Sequence record: OM135583.1 | Source: Escherichia phage EP01 | Length of the DNA stretch: 64,000 nucleotides | Reading direction: 5' to 3' (one strand) | Part shown: in pieces, positions 9,413 to 61,862 of the stretch | How the letters are laid out: every line of letters starts with the position of its first letter | Position numbering within the stretch: the first letter of the stretch is position 1 | Program-made: the position numbers and the translations under genes | The notes under the pieces: model-generated | What the model was told of the DNA's origin: nothing | The model's database searches: none | What the model saw: the letters and a program-made list of their open reading frames with translations, nothing else

Positions 9413-10159
9413 TTATCCTCGGATAAGTTTAAAAATTGAACAATTTAACGGATATCCTCTTTTCAGTTTAAGTTTATCAATAAAAGACAAGTTTTGATAC
9501 CGCTCTACACCTTGAATAATTTTATCACACATATCATATTGCATTTCTGCTTCTGACAACTTTTTCACAGTTTTCCAATCCGAGCCTTTAAGAAGAACGT
9601 TCAATTTAACAACTTCAGCGCCTTCTGCTATACGAGAACCATCAATACGAGCTTTAAGCGCTATAATCGTTAGCTTAATGTCAGATGTTTGTTTTGACTT
9701 AGAAAGCTGAGAAATGTGCTCAATTCGGTTTTCACGTTTTTTCTGTATAGCTTTAATTTGATTATAAGTCTTTTTGATTTTAGCCCATTTCTTTTCATCT
9801 AAATTTAGTTTATGAACTTTTTTCGCAGATGAACGACCAATTCGCAAAGCAAATAAATCACGCTTTTCAATCAACTCTTCTAAAGTATAATCAGAACGAA
9901 ATGTATTATACTTTTTCTTTACTGCAATAACATTCCCTTTAATATATCCAACGTTATTATCAAAACGTTCTAATGATAATTTCTCTCCTTCAATACGATT
10001 ATCAAAAGGTTCTCCCGAGTAAGCGCAAACTTTCTGATCTAAAATGTTCTTAATGTAATTGAAGTCTAAGTTAAAATCTTTAGAACGTCTTTTGGCAGAT
10101 GCCTGAGTATGCTCTAAACGACGTGTAATTTTACGAATTTGATTTTTAGACAGTTTCAT
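9413..10159 (-). CDS. basic hypothetical protein, 248 aa (srd position)
   Basis: Lys/Arg-rich ORF with early promoter upstream; synteny only. Confidence 0.5.
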   Translation of the reverse strand: MKLSKNQIRKITRRLEHTQASAKRRSKDFNLDFNYIKNILDQKVCAYSGEPFDNRIEGEKLSLERFDNNVGYIKGNVIAVKKKYNTFRSDYTLEELIEKRDLFALRIGRSSAKKVHKLNLDEKKWAKIKKTYNQIKAIQKKRENRIEHISQLSKSKQTSDIKLTIIALKARIDGSRIAEGAEVVKLNVLLKGSDWKTVKKLSEAEMQYDMCDKIIQGVERYQNLSFIDKLKLKRGYPLNCSIFKLIRG

Positions 10160-10275: not shown

Positions 10276-10878
10276 TTATAGATTAAATCCTTCAAAATCA
10301 AGAGTATAGATAGTGTATGTTGAATACTTTTTATATTCATATCTATCCGCAATTCTAAATACACTTCCAGCTGGTATCATTACTTCTTGTTCATCTGAAA
10401 CTAATTCCATATTACGATAGCGATGGCTATCCGGAAACTTAAAACTTGGACTATATTCTTTACAACGTAGAGCTTTTATAGCATACTCCTGGAAATTAAA
10501 TACCATAGGAGCTTTGAATTCAAAAATAACTTGTGTATTGTATTCTAATCCAGAAGCAAAATGTAAAGCTATATTTTTATCATATGAAGCTGATACTACT
10601 TTATCAAATGTAATAATATCAATTCCTTGATTTAACGCCTGCTTAGTCTCAACTGGAACACCTCTCCAAAGAGGTTTATCGTTTGGAACCAAACGAGATT
10701 TGATTATTTCATTTAACCAAGAATGATCGTCTGGCTTATTAGTAATACAATGAATTAAAAGTTCAATTTCGGATAAATTAAATCCTTCAGAAAGTAATTC
10801 TTCACGAATAGAAGCACGCACCGATGCATCCATTGATTTGATTTTAAAATCTTTTAATTGCATTGCTGAATATTTCAT
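10276..10878 (-). CDS. modA: mono-ADP-ribosyltransferase, 200 aa
   Basis: R (LWRGV), S-x-S (VSASY) and E-x-E (EQEVMIP) ART motifs; size and synteny. Confidence 0.75.
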   Translation of the reverse strand: MKYSAMQLKDFKIKSMDASVRASIREELLSEGFNLSEIELLIHCITNKPDDHSWLNEIIKSRLVPNDKPLWRGVPVETKQALNQGIDIITFDKVVSASYDKNIALHFASGLEYNTQVIFEFKAPMVFNFQEYAIKALRCKEYSPSFKFPDSHRYRNMELVSDEQEVMIPAGSVFRIADRYEYKKYSTYTIYTLDFEGFNL

Positions 10879-11510
10879 TCAACTACCTCAATATCATACA
10901 CTTTAAATGTTCCAAACGAATCGTGTAATTTTTCTTTTGAAATAGAAGTTATTTTATACTTTCCAATTGGAATCATCCATTCTTGTTCACGCACAATCAT
11001 CATTAAGTTATCAGTACGTTCTGAATCTAATCCATCAGTATCTTCATATGTATACTTAAACTCAGTATTAGGAGAAGAAAGTATAATATCGCTGATATGG
11101 TCAGAGTAATTAAAAGCTTTATCAGTTTTTAAGCGAAGTACTATTTCAGTGAAATACTCAACATAAGAAAAACCGCACGCTGTGTGCAAACTAGTAGTAA
11201 ATGAATCTACCCTATTCGTTGAAAACACTTCTCCGACTTGTAAATCTTTAATGAGTTCTTTTGTCGATTTTGATATACCACGATATAGCTGATAAGGTGA
11301 TTTAGTTAAATGCTTTTTAACGATTTTATTCAACTGCCGGTGAAGAGCTTCATTCTTTTTGGCTTCCATACATTGCCAAAGAACTGACTGCTCGAAGTCA
11401 GTAAATTTTTCACAGACCTTTTTATACATATCATATTGAAAATCAACGCTTTCAGCTTTTATAGATAACTGTTCAACATCTGCAAGATTAATAATCATGA
11501 TAGCCTCCAT
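10875..11510 (-). CDS. modB: mono-ADP-ribosyltransferase, 211 aa
   Basis: R (LYRGI), STN and EQEWMIP motifs; tandem paralogue of modA. Confidence 0.72.
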   Translation of the reverse strand: MEAIMIINLADVEQLSIKAESVDFQYDMYKKVCEKFTDFEQSVLWQCMEAKKNEALHRQLNKIVKKHLTKSPYQLYRGISKSTKELIKDLQVGEVFSTNRVDSFTTSLHTACGFSYVEYFTEIVLRLKTDKAFNYSDHISDIILSSPNTEFKYTYEDTDGLDSERTDNLMMIVREQEWMIPIGKYKITSISKEKLHDSFGTFKVYDIEVVE

Positions 11511-11756: not shown

Positions 11757-12227
11757 CTAGCGATAAAAACCAAAATAACGATTAGTTTCAATAATCTTTC
11801 TTTCTTCTTCGGATATTCTCCAGCGTAGTCCAACATCAAAATGAGCCCAGACCATCTTAACGAATGCATTTATATCTTTAATATCTTCAATAATGAATGT
11901 TTTACTTTTAGAAGGTTGACTCGCTAATTTAACTTTATCGTCTTCAAATAGGTCAAAAAGACCATATTCATGAGCTCTTTTATAGCCTTTGATAGTTAAA
12001 GCCTCAGAAGAAGAAAATGGTGAATCAGTATTCTGCAAAATATCTTCAGTATGCTTTATAATTAGAATAACATTTTCTGGATATTTTCTTTCTTTTATAT
12101 CTTTAATTAAAAGGTCCGGATTTTCTGCTAAAGGAATAATTAATGAGCAATTTTTGTCAAGCGTATTTACTGATTTACCTTCTTTAGACATAAATTCTAT
12201 TGAATAATGTTTTGCTACTTCAATCAT
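11757..12227 (-). CDS. hypothetical protein, 156 aa
   Basis: ORF track. Confidence 0.5.
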
Positions 12228-57079: not shown

Positions 57080-57292
57080 TCATTTTTGTCCTGTATTTAC
57101 TTTGTGCCGGTGCACGGCCTTAACTTTATCAAGGTATTTTTCAAAATTTCGCAATCTAGTATAGTCTGCCGGAGATTGGTTGAGCGATACTTCTCGACGC
57201 AAAGCTGAAATGATATTTCCAACTTCCCTACGAATTTCATCTAATTGAAGCACAGTAAGATTGCGAAGTTGCTTTTCAGTTAATTGTAGCAT
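57080..57292 (-). CDS. hypothetical protein, 70 aa
   Basis: ORF track. Confidence 0.45.
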
Positions 57293-57334
57293 ATATACCC
57301 CTTTAGTTAGATAAACCTATTTATAACTTTTGTA

Positions 57335-57916
57335 CTAACCAAGCTTTTTAGTTAATTCATTCCAATGTTTTCTACACAAAGAAACATAAATTTCATCACC
57401 AATACAGATTTGATCACCTTCTTTAACTGGTGTTCCATCTTCCATTAATCGAGCTGTCATAATCGCTTTTTTACCGCAATGACAAACTGCCTTCAGTTCA
57501 ATAAGTTTATCTGCAATCGCCAAAAGTTCTTTAGAACCTTCAAATAATTTTCCGGCGAAATCAGTCCTTAGACCATAAGCCATAACAGGAACATTATATG
57601 TATCGACAATTCGGCTTAATTGATGCACCTGTTCAGTTTTTAAAAACTGTGCTTCATCTACAAATACACAATGAATATCTTTTTGTGCTTCAGCCCATTT
57701 ATAGAACTCAAAAATATCCATATCATCTGTAATAATATTCGCTTCCTGTTTAATTCCAATGCGAGAAACGACTTCACAGACAGAATCGCGAGTATCAATA
57801 GCAGGCTTAAGAACTAATACACTCATTCCACGTTCTTTATAATTATGCGCAGCAGTCAAAAGAGAAGCAGATTTTCCAGCATTCATTGCTGCATAAGTAA
57901 AAATTAAACTCGCCAT
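57335..57916 (-). CDS. tk: thymidine kinase, 193 aa
   Basis: P-loop AAMNAGKS and C-terminal zinc-ribbon cysteines; 193 aa. Confidence 0.95.
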   Translation of the reverse strand: MASLIFTYAAMNAGKSASLLTAAHNYKERGMSVLVLKPAIDTRDSVCEVVSRIGIKQEANIITDDMDIFEFYKWAEAQKDIHCVFVDEAQFLKTEQVHQLSRIVDTYNVPVMAYGLRTDFAGKLFEGSKELLAIADKLIELKAVCHCGKKAIMTARLMEDGTPVKEGDQICIGDEIYVSLCRKHWNELTKKLG

Positions 57917-57917
57917 C

Positions 57918-58106
57918 TTAGTCCTTAGTTAAATTTTCTAAATATGTTTCTAAATCATTTTCAGCTTTATCGATAGATTTTACTAATTCGTAGTATGTTT
58001 CAGCATCTCCATAATCCGAAGCCAATTCAAAAGATAAATCTCGTTCTAAACTAATAATTTCGCTGATTAAAAATCGTATTTCATTCTTTTGTTCGCGAGT
58101 AATCAT
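57918..58106 (-). CDS. hypothetical acidic protein, 62 aa
   Basis: ORF track. Confidence 0.4.
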   Translation of the reverse strand: MITREQKNEIRFLISEIISLERDLSFELASDYGDAETYYELVKSIDKAENDLETYLENLTKD

Positions 58107-58309
58107 AAGGAATTTATATAATCAATAAGTTCTTGTTCTTTATCGTCGAAATCTTTACACAGTTCTTCGTATTCGTCGGTATTAAAAGGACCGCATTCAT
58201 CGCAAACTTTTTCCAATTCACTATTTTTATCAATAACTTCGTGAATAAGAGAAAACAGTCTGTCTTTTTGTTCTTTACTTAAACTCATAACCATGTAACC
58301 TTTAAGCAA
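58103..58309 (-). CDS. hypothetical acidic protein, 68 aa
   Basis: ORF track. Confidence 0.4.
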   Translation of the reverse strand: MLKGYMVMSLSKEQKDRLFSLIHEVIDKNSELEKVCDECGPFNTDEYEELCKDFDDKEQELIDYINSL

Positions 58310-58497
58310 TATTCTTCTACATGTTGTTTACGACCTTTCCTATCAATAAAGGTATATTCAACGAATGTTCCAATATAGTCTTTATCTACATCATGTGGAC
58401 TATTAATTGGGCATTTAGTACGGCAAATGCGTTCCCATTGACGAATAATTTCCGCTTTATTTTTAGGGTCAAACGGATGCGGGTAATGTGCTTTCAT
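58285..58497 (-). CDS. hypothetical protein, 70 aa
   Basis: ORF track. Confidence 0.4.
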   Translation of the reverse strand: MKAHYPHPFDPKNKAEIIRQWERICRTKCPINSPHDVDKDYIGTFVEYTFIDRKGRKQHVEEYCLKVTWL

Positions 58498-58948
58498 AAT
58501 CCACCACTATTAAATCAATATCAGGAGTAAACATGTCGATTAATTTAGAAACCTTATCCCAATCGCCTCCAGCAATACCGCAACCTATGCGTGGAATGTA
58601 AATTACTGGTTTAAACAAAAGGGTTTCTGCCTGTAAATTTAATTCTATCATGCAATTTACTAAAGCACCATAATCAAGATTAGGACCCGGTTCGTATTGC
58701 GTATACAGATTATAGCATATACCAAATCCCGTAGGACTATGCTTAAAAACAATAGACATATCGCCTAATTTATCACGAGAACCGTATTCGGTAGTGGTTT
58801 TATCTATTTCTAAAATTTTGGGATAGGCTCTTGCTAATTGACCCGCTACGCCAGAGCCCATTGTGTGGAAGCAGTTGCACCCATGCGCAATAATATTACC
58901 TTGAAGAAATAGGGCGACAATATCGCCCTTGATATATTTTACAATCAT
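58469..58948 (-). CDS. macro-domain (ADP-ribose binding/processing) protein, 159 aa
   Basis: HGCNCFHTMGSGVAGQLA and IGCGIAGGDW glycine-rich macro-domain signatures. Confidence 0.6.
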   Translation of the reverse strand: MIVKYIKGDIVALFLQGNIIAHGCNCFHTMGSGVAGQLARAYPKILEIDKTTTEYGSRDKLGDMSIVFKHSPTGFGICYNLYTQYEPGPNLDYGALVNCMIELNLQAETLLFKPVIYIPRIGCGIAGGDWDKVSKLIDMFTPDIDLIVVDYESTLPASV

Positions 58949-59286
58949 CTAGTACTCAATCCTCGATTATAAGAATCTACCAAACGGTCAACCATTGAAT
59001 GACAAGCGGCTTTATCTTTCTCCTCCGCAACTGAACATTCTAAGGTATTCCACTTTTTAGCATATCGTTTTAATAAAGTATCATTTTTGTATCTGCTTGA
59101 TTTATCTCTTTCTCCGTCTTTATATGCATATATTAATTTCTGCGCAAATTCAGCTTGGCATGCTTTATTTTTCCCGCAATAATCCGCGGCAGTACGGTTT
59201 ACATACTCTCTAACTTCAGAATATGATATATCTGCTAACGCAGAAAATGAAATTAATCCTACACATAAAACCAAAATTTTAGTCAT
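58945..59286 (-). CDS. secreted protein with signal peptide, 113 aa
   Basis: Hydrophobic N-terminus ending ALA; four Cys. Confidence 0.5.
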   Translation of the reverse strand: MTKILVLCVGLISFSALADISYSEVREYVNRTAADYCGKNKACQAEFAQKLIYAYKDGERDKSSRYKNDTLLKRYAKKWNTLECSVAEEKDKAACHSMVDRLVDSYNRGLSTR

Positions 59287-59824
59287 TTACTATTTCCAGT
59301 AGTTTATTATTTTTAAGGTAGTTAGCCTTTTCTAGGACTTCAGAAGCATATTTAGAACCTGCTTTAACATTCCATCCCGAATTATAAGAGGATATTGCCT
59401 TTCTTATATCGCCCTTATGTATATTTAACCAATAAGAAAGTTCAATGTACGCCCAGGAAGCTGAATTGGACCGTTTATTCAACATTCTTTTTATTTCGGC
59501 ATCGGTCATATTATAACCAAGTTCCTTAACTCTTGCTCGCATAGTCGGCAAATAATTTTGGAACATTCCATAGGCATGATGCTTTGGTTTAGATTTTAAA
59601 TTAACTCCGGCAGAGCTTTCTTGCCATAAAATAGCAGCCATTATATGACCTAATCCGCTCTTGTGGATATTTTTGTGTGTTTTATATTTTCCATCCTTAG
59701 AAAATTGTTCCCCGAATTGATACGCGTAACGCATGTTATCGAGTTGGACATTACTGAAAGTATGCTCGGAGCTATGTGCCATCATAGAAATGGCCAATAG
59801 ACCAGCGAGTAGTGCTTTTCTCAT
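59279..59824 (-). CDS. lytic transglycosylase (SLT-domain)-like periplasmic protein, 181 aa
   Basis: Signal peptide; AILWQESS and YGMFQ motifs resembling SLT catalytic E-S and YGLMQ. Confidence 0.6.
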   Translation of the reverse strand: MRKALLAGLLAISMMAHSSEHTFSNVQLDNMRYAYQFGEQFSKDGKYKTHKNIHKSGLGHIMAAILWQESSAGVNLKSKPKHHAYGMFQNYLPTMRARVKELGYNMTDAEIKRMLNKRSNSASWAYIELSYWLNIHKGDIRKAISSYNSGWNVKAGSKYASEVLEKANYLKNNKLLEIVND

Positions 59825-59831
59825 GCTTACC

Positions 59832-60293
59832 TCATTGAGTTTTAATTACTGCTTTAGAAGCCTTTCCTGGTAAACGACGACTGTTGATAATTGCCATCCT
59901 GCACTGAAGTGACGGGTCTTTGAACTTCGCATTAGGTTTACAAACTGTAAATCCAAGCCAAAGATTTCCATCTGTGATTTCTAAACGTCCAGGACGATAT
60001 TCAACCCCATCAATAAAATCCTCATCAATGTCAGGACGTGGAGGCATACTCAGGAATTCATTAACTTCTAAAACGTGGTCTTTTATTTTATGGAATAATT
60101 CAAAAACATATGTCTCATCAATCTCCCGTTGAATTGCACGATCAAGAAGATGCTGAGAATATTTTAGATGAAACGATGAGACCCCTGCTGCTTTTGATGC
60201 CTCACGAATCTCATTGTTAATTTGACGAAACTCCGACTCAAAGTGACGACGGAGCTTATTTCGACGGATAAAAACTTCTGTGTTGATAGTCAT
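59832..60293 (-). CDS. regB: RegB endoribonuclease, 153 aa
   Basis: 153 aa; near-identical to T4 RegB as I recall it. Confidence 0.92.
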   Translation of the reverse strand: MTINTEVFIRRNKLRRHFESEFRQINNEIREASKAAGVSSFHLKYSQHLLDRAIQREIDETYVFELFHKIKDHVLEVNEFLSMPPRPDIDEDFIDGVEYRPGRLEITDGNLWLGFTVCKPNAKFKDPSLQCRMAIINSRRLPGKASKAVIKTQ

Positions 60294-60319
60294 GTTATTC
60301 TCCTCTTAACTGATAGAAA

Positions 60320-60349
60320 AATTATACCACAGTCAAGAGGAAAAGTAAA
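60320..60349 (-). promoter_or_regulatory. early promoter upstream of regB
   Basis: GTTTAC-N-TGGTATAAT. Confidence 0.65.
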
Positions 60350-60352
60350 CAG

Positions 60353-60630
60353 TTATTCTTTAAATCTAATCAATTTATTCATAGACTTTGAAACTTCTGC
60401 ACGAACCTCATGTAAGTTTTTAAGCTGTTCAAGACGCTGCTCATAGTAAGCAATTTCATCTTCTTCGAGACAGTCCTGTGAATCTTCTTTAAGATAACGC
60501 GCATAGTCCTGGAAAGCGTTACGAATTACTTCCTGGAAATCATCAAGACTTTGAATTTTCTTAGGAGCAACAGATACACGACGAGGGGCAGTATAATACT
60601 CATAACCAAGCCCTGCGCTTAATTGAGCCA
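60353..60630 (-). CDS. hypothetical protein, 92 aa (start trimmed)
   Basis: ATG overlaps stop of upstream ORF (TAATG). Confidence 0.45.
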
Positions 60631-60897
60631 TTAATATTTTTCCTCTGGTTGGAACACAGCACGACAAGCCCACATACTGGCTTCTTTGAGTTTAGTTTTA
60701 GCAATAGTTAACTGATCAAGGCTTTCAGCATAATTCTTCGCGAATTCACAGTCTTCACAATTATCTAGTGCTTCCCAGAATTCATCATATAAAGCATCAA
60801 AGATAAGTCCTAAACGAACTTCAGCATCTTTGATAGCATTCACTTTACCGATTTTCTCTTCAGTATGTGGCTTATAACCCTTAATATCTTCAATCAT
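60631..60897 (-). CDS. hypothetical acidic protein, 88 aa
   Basis: ORF track. Confidence 0.45.
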
Positions 60898-61111
60898 ATT
60901 TTACTTCCTCACCAGTACCCAAATCATATTCAACTAAACGAATAGGTTCATGAATGCCATATCCCTGAACAGAAATTTCTGTCGTAGGATAAATTCCACT
61001 AATATCACCCATGTTCCACGCTTCATTAAATTGCTGTTCGCCTGAATTACTAAACCACTCGGCGAAAGCATTTAGCACATCTTCAGAACCTTCAATAATT
61101 ATCTTTGCCAT
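60890..61111 (-). CDS. hypothetical protein, 73 aa
   Basis: ORF track. Confidence 0.4.
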   Translation of the reverse strand: MAKIIIEGSEDVLNAFAEWFSNSGEQQFNEAWNMGDISGIYPTTEISVQGYGIHEPIRLVEYDLGTGEEVKYD

Positions 61112-61485
61112 TACAAACTCTCAGTAAAGGTACGAGCGATAACGTCGCGCTGCTGTTCCGGAGTCAGAGAGTTAAAGCGAACTGCATAACCGGATACACG
61201 GATGGTCAGCTGCGGATATTTTTCCGGATGCTTAACTGCATCTTCCAGAGTTTCGCGACGCAGAACGTTAACGTTCAGGTGTTGACCACCTTCAATTTTA
61301 ACTGTAGGTTGTGTTTCAATTTCAATTTCACGGGCATGCAAACCATAGAAAATTTCTGGGTCTACAAAAGAGTCCTCTTTAAAAGTTTTAGAGACAATAA
61401 TTCGTGCTTGAATACCATCTTCAAAATAAATAGTACCTTTATGCGTGCCTTCAAGAATTTGATATGCTTTCATATAACCTCTCAA
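61111..61485 (-). CDS. autonomous glycyl-radical cofactor (GrcA/YfiD-like), 124 aa
   Basis: C-terminal [13 protein letters not shown] glycyl-radical motif; 3' half visibly more GC-rich than flanks. Confidence 0.8.
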
Positions 61486-61862
61486 TTAGAAAATAAATTT
61501 ATCCAAGATTGCTCTTTAATTAAAAATGGCTCAGAATCATATGCCATTAAACTTTGGGTGATTAGTCCTTTAAAAGGTCCATCAATAAATTCCATGGCAA
61601 AATATGGAATTTTATTCATTAATCTTGCATTAGGAGCAGTGCACAAAACTCTACATCCTTTGAATACGCCTTTTTGTAATTTGTATTGCTTAGGATAAAA
61701 TTCGCTCAAGACATTGTTATTTGCCAAAATTTCAAAATGATTCACCAATTTATTTTTAATAGTTTTTGGCGAAAAATAAAGATATTCGAAAAGCTGAGTG
61801 TCTGTCATCATTGCATTCCAATTACGAAAAACTGTGGACGAGTAATACCACCAATGCAGCAT
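61482..61862 (-). CDS. hypothetical protein, 126 aa
   Basis: ORF track. Confidence 0.45.

Follow-up and report, generated by a model that had tools for sequence, protein, structure and literature searches.

A stand-alone macrodomain at the tk.4 locus of Escherichia phage EP01: a glutamine-type active site and a probable role against DarT2

The tk.4 gene of Escherichia phage EP01, a phage of the genus Tequatrovirus, lies between vs and tk.3 in the 64,000-nucleotide stretch of sequence record OM135583.1 that was analysed here (hereafter, the window), and it encodes a protein which is, with near certainty, a macrodomain. By sequence, orthology and synteny identify the gene as the counterpart of phage T4 tk.4, the product of which has been renamed AdfM, for anti-DarT factor Macrodomain, in a 2025 preprint (bioRxiv 10.1101/2025.11.20.689424). 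Tk.4 probably protects the phage from DarT2-type DNA ADP-ribosylation through the enzymatic removal of thymidine-linked ADP-ribose, and sequence comparison assigns its active site to the glutamine type of SCO6735 rather than to the lysine type of DarG. The identity of tk.4 and its likely role against DarTG2 are already in the literature; what is added here is necessarily modest, therefore, and consists of the SCO6735-type site, which lacks the lysine, and of a sharply bounded allele replacement that makes the tk.4 locus a hotspot of allele swapping.

Fold and active site of Tk.4

The initial annotation of the window had described a macro-domain protein of 159 amino acids with two glycine-rich signatures, and both statements hold, in that the open reading frame (ORF) is found on the minus strand as described and both signatures are exact translations of it. 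The features concerned are as follows.

58469..58948, minus strand: tk.4 coding sequence, an ATG-start ORF of 159 codons for a stand-alone macro domain, orthologue of T4 Tk.4/AdfM
58832..58876, minus strand: Loop 1, NCFHTMGSGVAGQLA, residues 25-39 of the translation, with the putative active-site asparagine N25 and the first glycine-rich motif (G31, G33, A35)
58697..58711, minus strand: NLYTQ motif, residues 80-84 of the translation, with Q84 at the position of DarG Lys80 and TARG1 Lys84
58559..58588, minus strand: Loop 2, IGCGIAGGDW, residues 121-130 of the translation, the second glycine-rich motif, with A126 at the position of TARG1 Asp125

The protein scores 32 bits (E=1.3e-7; curated cut-off 22) against the Pfam Macro family (PF01661), over profile positions 2-117 of 118, and matches PHROG 335 with E=1.2e-71. 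Tk.4 has the alpha/beta macro fold, and its closest structural neighbours are members of the ALC1/TARG1-like class, clearly apart from the MacroD and PARG types. Both glycine-rich motifs, N25-x5-G31-x-G33-V-A35 and G122-x-G124-x-x-G127-G128, are present and are conserved across the Tk.4 family; among 67 family members, N25, G33, A35, G122, G124 and W130 never vary, G128 is kept in 62 of the 67, and all 14 of the columns that are invariant across this set are retained in the window protein. ADP-ribose is most likely bound through these two loops. Q84 is invariant in 67/67 family members, in 80/80 bacterial relatives (the Q84 column was outside the search pattern used to collect them) and in 120/120 top database hits.

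When the Tk.4 family is aligned to DarG-type sequences with hhalign, Q84 stands opposite the catalytic Lys80 of the DarG FPTK motif, and in hmmsearch alignments to the family profile it stands opposite K84 of TARG1 (in LITK) and the glutamine of BT1257 (in NMIGQ), while A126 stands opposite the catalytic Asp125 of TARG1 in the alignment to TARG1 PRIGCGLDRLQW. The profile also matches SCO6735 (PDB 5E3B), with E=3.8e-15. As far as can be read from these alignments, therefore, the Tk.4 active site is of the SCO6735/BT1257 type, consisting of Asn25 and Gln84, with no Lys/Asp dyad. In SCO6735, Gln85 takes the place of the lysine and the Q85A and N27S substitutions abolish activity; the enzyme cleaves thymidine-linked ADP-ribose off single-stranded DNA by a mechanism that is proposed to be water-mediated, with the glutamine positioning the distal ribose, and the authors of that work regard the glutamine as setting SCO6735/ALC1 homologues apart from TARG1/DarG homologues (PMC9411070). 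Because the Tk.4 site has the glutamine and is without the Lys/Asp dyad, its catalysis would be water-mediated, unlike that of DarG and TARG1, which depends on the lysine. The preprint on T4 AdfM passes over the absent lysine without comment (bioRxiv 10.1101/2025.11.20.689424).

Tk.4 shares with SCO6735 of Streptomyces coelicolor, an ALC1-like hydrolase of thymidine-linked ADP-ribose on DNA, the stand-alone macrodomain architecture, the glutamine in place of lysine, probably also the asparagine that is essential in SCO6735, the lack of either residue of the TARG1 dyad and the lack of a cognate DarT; it differs in that SCO6735 is bacterial and induced by DNA damage, and has a longer ‘mobile loop’. 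Some features weigh against a catalytic assignment of this type. Q84 corresponds to SCO6735 Gln85 only by way of DarG K80 and TARG1 K84, to which both residues align, and the correspondence of N25 and G128 to SCO6735 Asn27 and Gly128 is likewise indirect. Moreover, the loop that follows Q84 has no lysines to match K89 and K94 of the SCO6735 mobile loop, which are proposed to bind DNA (PMC9411070), and Tk.4 is an acidic protein, with an isoelectric point of 5.0. BT1257 of Bacteroides thetaiotaomicron (PDB 2AFC/2FG1) differs from Tk.4 by a 6-residue insertion after the glutamine loop, and no function is given for it in the records and literature examined.

The sole NCBIfam and PADLOC matches of Tk.4 are to DarG, and these cover only its N-terminal macrodomain part: NF048014 (DarG) is matched with a score of 27.7 bits where the cut-off is 250, over model positions 2-142 of 338, and the PADLOC DarG model over positions 3-144 of 329. 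Since both matches stop at the N-terminal macrodomain, Tk.4 is without a DarT-binding domain. In structurally known DarG proteins (Mycobacterium tuberculosis 5M3I, T. aquaticus 5M31 and the T. africanus DarTG 7OMU), by contrast, the catalytic Lys80 stands where Tk.4 has Gln84, and the macrodomain is followed by a C-terminal DarT-binding domain and accompanied by an adjacent darT gene, whereas Tk.4 ends at 159 residues and has vs and tk.3 as its neighbours. Tk.4 was accordingly rejected as a member of the DarG family: it lacks the lysine, has no C-terminal domain, scores below the cut-off and has no toxin gene next to it. A toxin–antitoxin reading was rejected as well: a tblastn search with a single Pseudomonas aeruginosa DarT2 query found no DarT2 homologue in the 64-kb window and none within 4 kb of any of the 80 bacterial relatives (0/80), with chance matches only (E>2) at the sensitivity that one query affords.

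Removal of thymidine-linked ADP-ribose and other possible functions

The functional case for Tk.4 comes from T4. In the HIDEN-SEQ screen, tk.4 was the one T4 gene to emerge as conditionally essential on a DarTG2 host, a clean knockout of it became sensitive to DarTG2, and T4 was found to require it on DarTG2-carrying hosts alone (bioRxiv 10.1101/2025.11.20.689424). That DarTG2 hosts make tk.4 necessary has been demonstrated by others, and only for the T4 allele; for both the T4 and the window alleles we infer the hydrolase chemistry. In the proposed mechanism, a host DarT2 toxin would place ADP-ribose on thymidines of single-stranded phage DNA and so block replication; the two glycine-rich loops of Tk.4 would bind the ADP-ribose, and the enzyme would hydrolyse the bond between thymine and ribose to restore normal DNA, using a water molecule for catalysis with the glutamine holding the distal ribose in position. 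Tk.4 would in this respect be an orphan ‘antitoxin-like’ eraser, because it has neither a DarT-binding domain nor a partner toxin gene.

Several points count against this assignment. No biochemical study of any Tk.4-family protein was found in the literature searched for Tk.4/AdfM, and the source preprint, which awaits peer review, infers the removal of ADP-ribose from DNA thymidines by T4 AdfM rather than assaying it (bioRxiv 10.1101/2025.11.20.689424). Furthermore, the specificity of the window allele could differ, given its identity of only 57% to the T4 allele that was tested. It is this lack of biochemistry in the family, together with the distance from the only allele tested genetically, that holds confidence in enzymatic removal at a good rather than a high level.

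Tk.4 might instead neutralise DarT2 mainly by binding the toxin, that is, by stoichiometric inhibition, or might use both routes. In vitro, DarT is inhibited by each of the catalytically dead proteins SCO6735 Q85A, DarG K80A and TARG1 K84A, most strongly by SCO6735 (PMC9411070), and AdfA and AdfB, the other known small anti-DarT factors, work by binding (PMC11825919). The stretches in which the T4 and window alleles differ, residues 63-79, 101-112 and 131-159, lie outside both glycine loops and NLYTQ, a pattern that would also suit a toxin-contact surface under selection. On the other hand, hundreds of homologues from phages and bacteria show no variation in N25, Q84 or either glycine loop, which argues for selection on catalysis, and an inhibitor of this kind sits poorly with a protein that has no DarT-binding C-terminal domain and whose bacterial relatives have no DarT2 homologue close by. 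Inhibition by binding is therefore considered unlikely.

Enzymatic removal could also extend beyond DarT2 marks on DNA, with DarTG2 being one target of several and the substrate being broader or different, such as uracil-linked ADP-ribose on RNA or the marks of other DarT-like or secreted toxins. SCO6735, TARG1 and DarG do reverse uracil-linked RNA ADP-ribosylation (PMC13036486), and a general ‘immunity’ role is suggested by the spread of the family over phages of many host genera and by its occurrence as orphan genes in a variety of bacteria. On the other side, the only T4 phenotype reported is with DarTG2 (bioRxiv 10.1101/2025.11.20.689424), and CmdTAC, a system that ADP-ribosylates messenger RNA, still restricts T4, from which it follows that Tk.4 does not erase adenine-N6 marks; the CmdTAC paper gives no information on reversal by macrodomains (PMC11618068). 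A broader substrate range is, if anything, slightly less probable than toxin binding.

Public records label the gene product variously as "macro domain-containing protein", "macro domain protein" or "phosphatase", and the RefSeq T4 entry for tk.4 carries an ‘A1pp phosphatase motif’ remark. Such labels would make Tk.4 an ADP-ribose-1''-phosphate (Appr-1''-p) phosphatase or an O-acetyl-ADP-ribose deacetylase acting on small metabolites, and, at the level of residues alone, H22 and T29 do align with the Poa1p positions altered in the H23A and S30A mutants. Q84, however, aligns with a serine in Poa1p but with the essential glutamine of the hydrolases that act on ADP-ribosylated DNA. T4 infection is, moreover, not known to involve any pathway that would produce Appr-1''-p, and the Poa1p-like Appr-1''-pase label is without biological support in T4. 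The T4 phenotype is, in addition, specific to a DNA-modifying toxin (bioRxiv 10.1101/2025.11.20.689424), so that a role on small metabolites is very improbable.

The initial annotation had placed ModA/ModB ADP-ribosyltransferases at 10276-11510 and had offered two roles for the macrodomain, namely the editing of phage-made modifications and the reversal of a host defence based on ADP-ribosylation. The transferases are indeed there, as ORFs 10276-10878 and 10875-11510 that match PHROG 832, and the 200-residue ModA ORF has the ModA residues R72, S109, F127, F129 and E165 as listed in PMC8120803. The published genetics of T4 tk.4 bear out the second role. The first, by which Tk.4 would edit the ADP-ribosylation of host proteins by Alt, ModA and ModB, or their RNAylation by ModB, is not supported. 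It can draw on the presence of ModA and ModB in the same genome and on a published discussion of phages in which transferases and erasers occur together (PMC9503650). ModA and ModB, however, are R-S-E transferases that modify arginine (PMC8120803), and arginine-linked ADP-ribose is removed by ARH/DraG rather than macrodomain activity, the reaction of the ARH-family enzymes being ‘not catalyzed by human macrodomains’ (PMC10789625); enzymes of the TARG1 class work on Glu/Asp esters and on thymine or uracil (PMC9411070, PMC13036486, PMC10789625). The tk.4 knockout is, moreover, viable, and the gene surfaced only in the DarTG2 screen (bioRxiv 10.1101/2025.11.20.689424). The argument from proximity is itself weak, because modA and modB lie 47 kb from tk.4, in different transcription units. 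Editing of phage-made marks is thus the least credible of the functions considered. As to the transferase locus itself, the pair is flanked by Srd and Mrh (flanking regions 9413-10159 and 11757-12227), of which Srd is an anti-sigma factor with weaker matches to HNH-endonuclease families, and the 211-residue ModB ORF may start at an internal methionine (residue 5).

Relatives of Tk.4 in phages and bacteria

The family is large, with 794 clusters in a collection of 5.8 billion proteins, and tblastn finds it in 2859/50,697 phage records (~5.6%), the hosts of which include Escherichia, Klebsiella, Salmonella, Pseudomonas, Vibrio and Acinetobacter, among others. A scan of bacterial genomes gave more than 566 loci, of which the 80 kept, at 33-44% identity, come from marine Rhodobacteraceae (Ruegeria, Pelagimonas, Roseovarius), Desulfobacter, Verrucomicrobia, Planctomycetes and other taxa. 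These relatives are stand-alone proteins, with a median length of 151 residues and an invariant NxYTQ motif. Since they stand alone and have no DarT2 homologue within 4 kb, the family looks less like antitoxins than like orphan ‘immunity-type’ macrodomains, a view already put forward for SCO6735.

Within phages, the closest comparison is with T4 Tk.4 (NP_049723) itself, which shares the vs-tk.4-tk.3 locus and the fold class. At 155 residues against 159, the two proteins are identical over their first 14 residues and in the HGCNCFHTMGSGVAGQL, NLYTQ and PRIG.GI..G.WD motifs, and the window protein carries 4 extra residues at its C-terminus. Escherichia phage PBM-1 encodes a protein identical to that of the window.

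The name AdfM has also been given to gp104 of phage PhiKZ (PMC13309987), a phage orphan macrodomain that likewise acts against DarTG2 and has the conserved asparagine. This protein removes DarT2-made ADP-ribose from a TNTC oligonucleotide in vitro, and the N23A substitution reduces the removal (PMC13309987); N23 aligns with N25 of Tk.4, in an alignment of only 23 bits. Unlike Tk.4, however, gp104 belongs to the DarG-type lineage (E=9e-25 to M. tuberculosis DarG), has the FPTK lysine and is imported into the phage nucleus. In other words, because gp104 is of the DarG type, with the lysine, and can barely be aligned with Tk.4, the two proteins named AdfM are, judged from their sequences, different macrodomain lineages, and the SCO6735-type active site of Tk.4 would imply an origin separate from those of DarG and PhiKZ AdfM.

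A functional parallel is offered by AdfN (T4 gp30.3; PMC11825919), an orphan, antitoxin-like ADP-ribosylglycohydrolase of the same phage group that erases DarT marks from phage DNA. It differs from Tk.4 in having the unrelated NADAR fold, in acting on guanosine-linked DarT1 marks as opposed to thymidine-linked DarT2 marks, and in its T4 location, which is the gene 30 region (30.3).

Allele replacement and the tk.4 neighbourhood

The 3-kb neighbourhood of tk.4 is 96-99% identical to many Tequatrovirus genomes. Its gene order, rI.-1, rI, rI.1, tk, tk.1, tk.2, tk.3, tk.4, vs, vs.1, regB, is that of phage T4, and the vs-tk.4-tk.3-tk.2-tk.1-tk synteny is common to the window, UFV-AREG1 and T4. Within this setting the window Tk.4 is only 57-58% identical to T4 Tk.4 in amino acids and 64% in DNA, whereas tk is 99%, vs 94%, vs.1 99%, regB 99% and rI 100% identical to T4; the less conserved neighbours are tk.1 (89%) and tk.2 (76% in amino acids, the second most divergent gene). 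The divergence and the overlap with vs are located as follows.

58500..58860, no strand: divergence island, with 60-nt sliding nucleotide identity of 45-70% to T4 (NC_000866, 60922-61389)
58945..58948, minus strand: ATGA overlap of the vs stop and the tk.4 start, from the sequence and ORF coordinates

On either side of the island, identity to T4 is 92-100% in most 60-nt windows, and it is back at 92-100% over approximately the first 90 nt of tk.4 and upstream of it. There is, therefore, a mosaic breakpoint inside tk.4, and the replacement is confined to the body of the gene. At 64% nucleotide identity between the alleles, synonymous sites are saturated. Across the phage records, identity to the window protein is bimodal, with 312 records at 90% or more, 7 at 80-90%, 103 at 60-80% and 2437 below 60%, and the T4-like tk.4 locus holds several well-populated allele classes that are 45-60% identical to one another. 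Such a pattern, as read from these sequences, fits modular exchange at a counter-defence locus.

The ATGA overlap suggests translational coupling in the regB-vs.1-vs-tk.4-tk gene string. The gene so joined to tk.4 immediately upstream, vs (58945-59286), encodes a valyl-tRNA synthetase modifier and is the T4 gene most strongly depleted in minimal medium in the HIDEN-SEQ preprint (bioRxiv 10.1101/2025.11.20.689424). At the other end, tk.4 overlaps tk.3 by 29 nt in the window, as against 4 in T4. The product of tk.3 (58285-58497) is a DUF7202 protein, and tk.1 (57918-58106) and tk.2 (58103-58309) are tandem paralogues, since both match Pfam DUF7438 (E 2e-14 and 1e-19, respectively); the start codon of tk.2 is apparently TTG here.

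At the start of tk.4, a perfect 8-bp hairpin, AGGGCGAT-ATT-GTCGCCCT, occupies 58911-58929 (both strands), within codons 7-13, and a second predicted stem upstream of the gene (58946-58990) spans the Shine-Dalgarno sequence and the start codon. Both are identical in T4 while the remaining gene diverges, for which reason they might be regulatory elements at the RNA level. In phage T2, tk.4 messenger RNA was found in Hfq RIL-seq chimeras with the host small RNA ArcZ, and the Tk.4 protein has been detected in infected cells. A scan of 57200-61500 for promoters and terminators was uninformative, with 12 promoter-like sites found where shuffled sequence gives an expectation of 16.4.

It is possible, though we put this forward only tentatively, that the body of the window tk.4 is one of several common alleles adapted to different DarT2 variants or to other toxins that ADP-ribosylate thymine or uracil, with the variable surfaces at 63-79, 101-112 and 131-159 contacting the toxin or the DNA, and that the T-even AdfM arose from stand-alone bacterial ‘immunity’ macrodomains of the SCO6735/BT1257 kind, with their glutamine-based, water-mediated mechanism, independently of the DarG-derived AdfM of PhiKZ. 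If this is true, the set of defence systems neutralised would vary from one Tk.4 allele to another. Anti-phage defence through the ADP-ribosylation of DNA by DarT toxins is widespread, and the T-even phages hold layered answers to it in AdfA, AdfN and AdfM; because the family occurs in ~5.6% of sequenced phage genomes, the activity of these macrodomains is relevant to host range and to the selection of phages for therapy.
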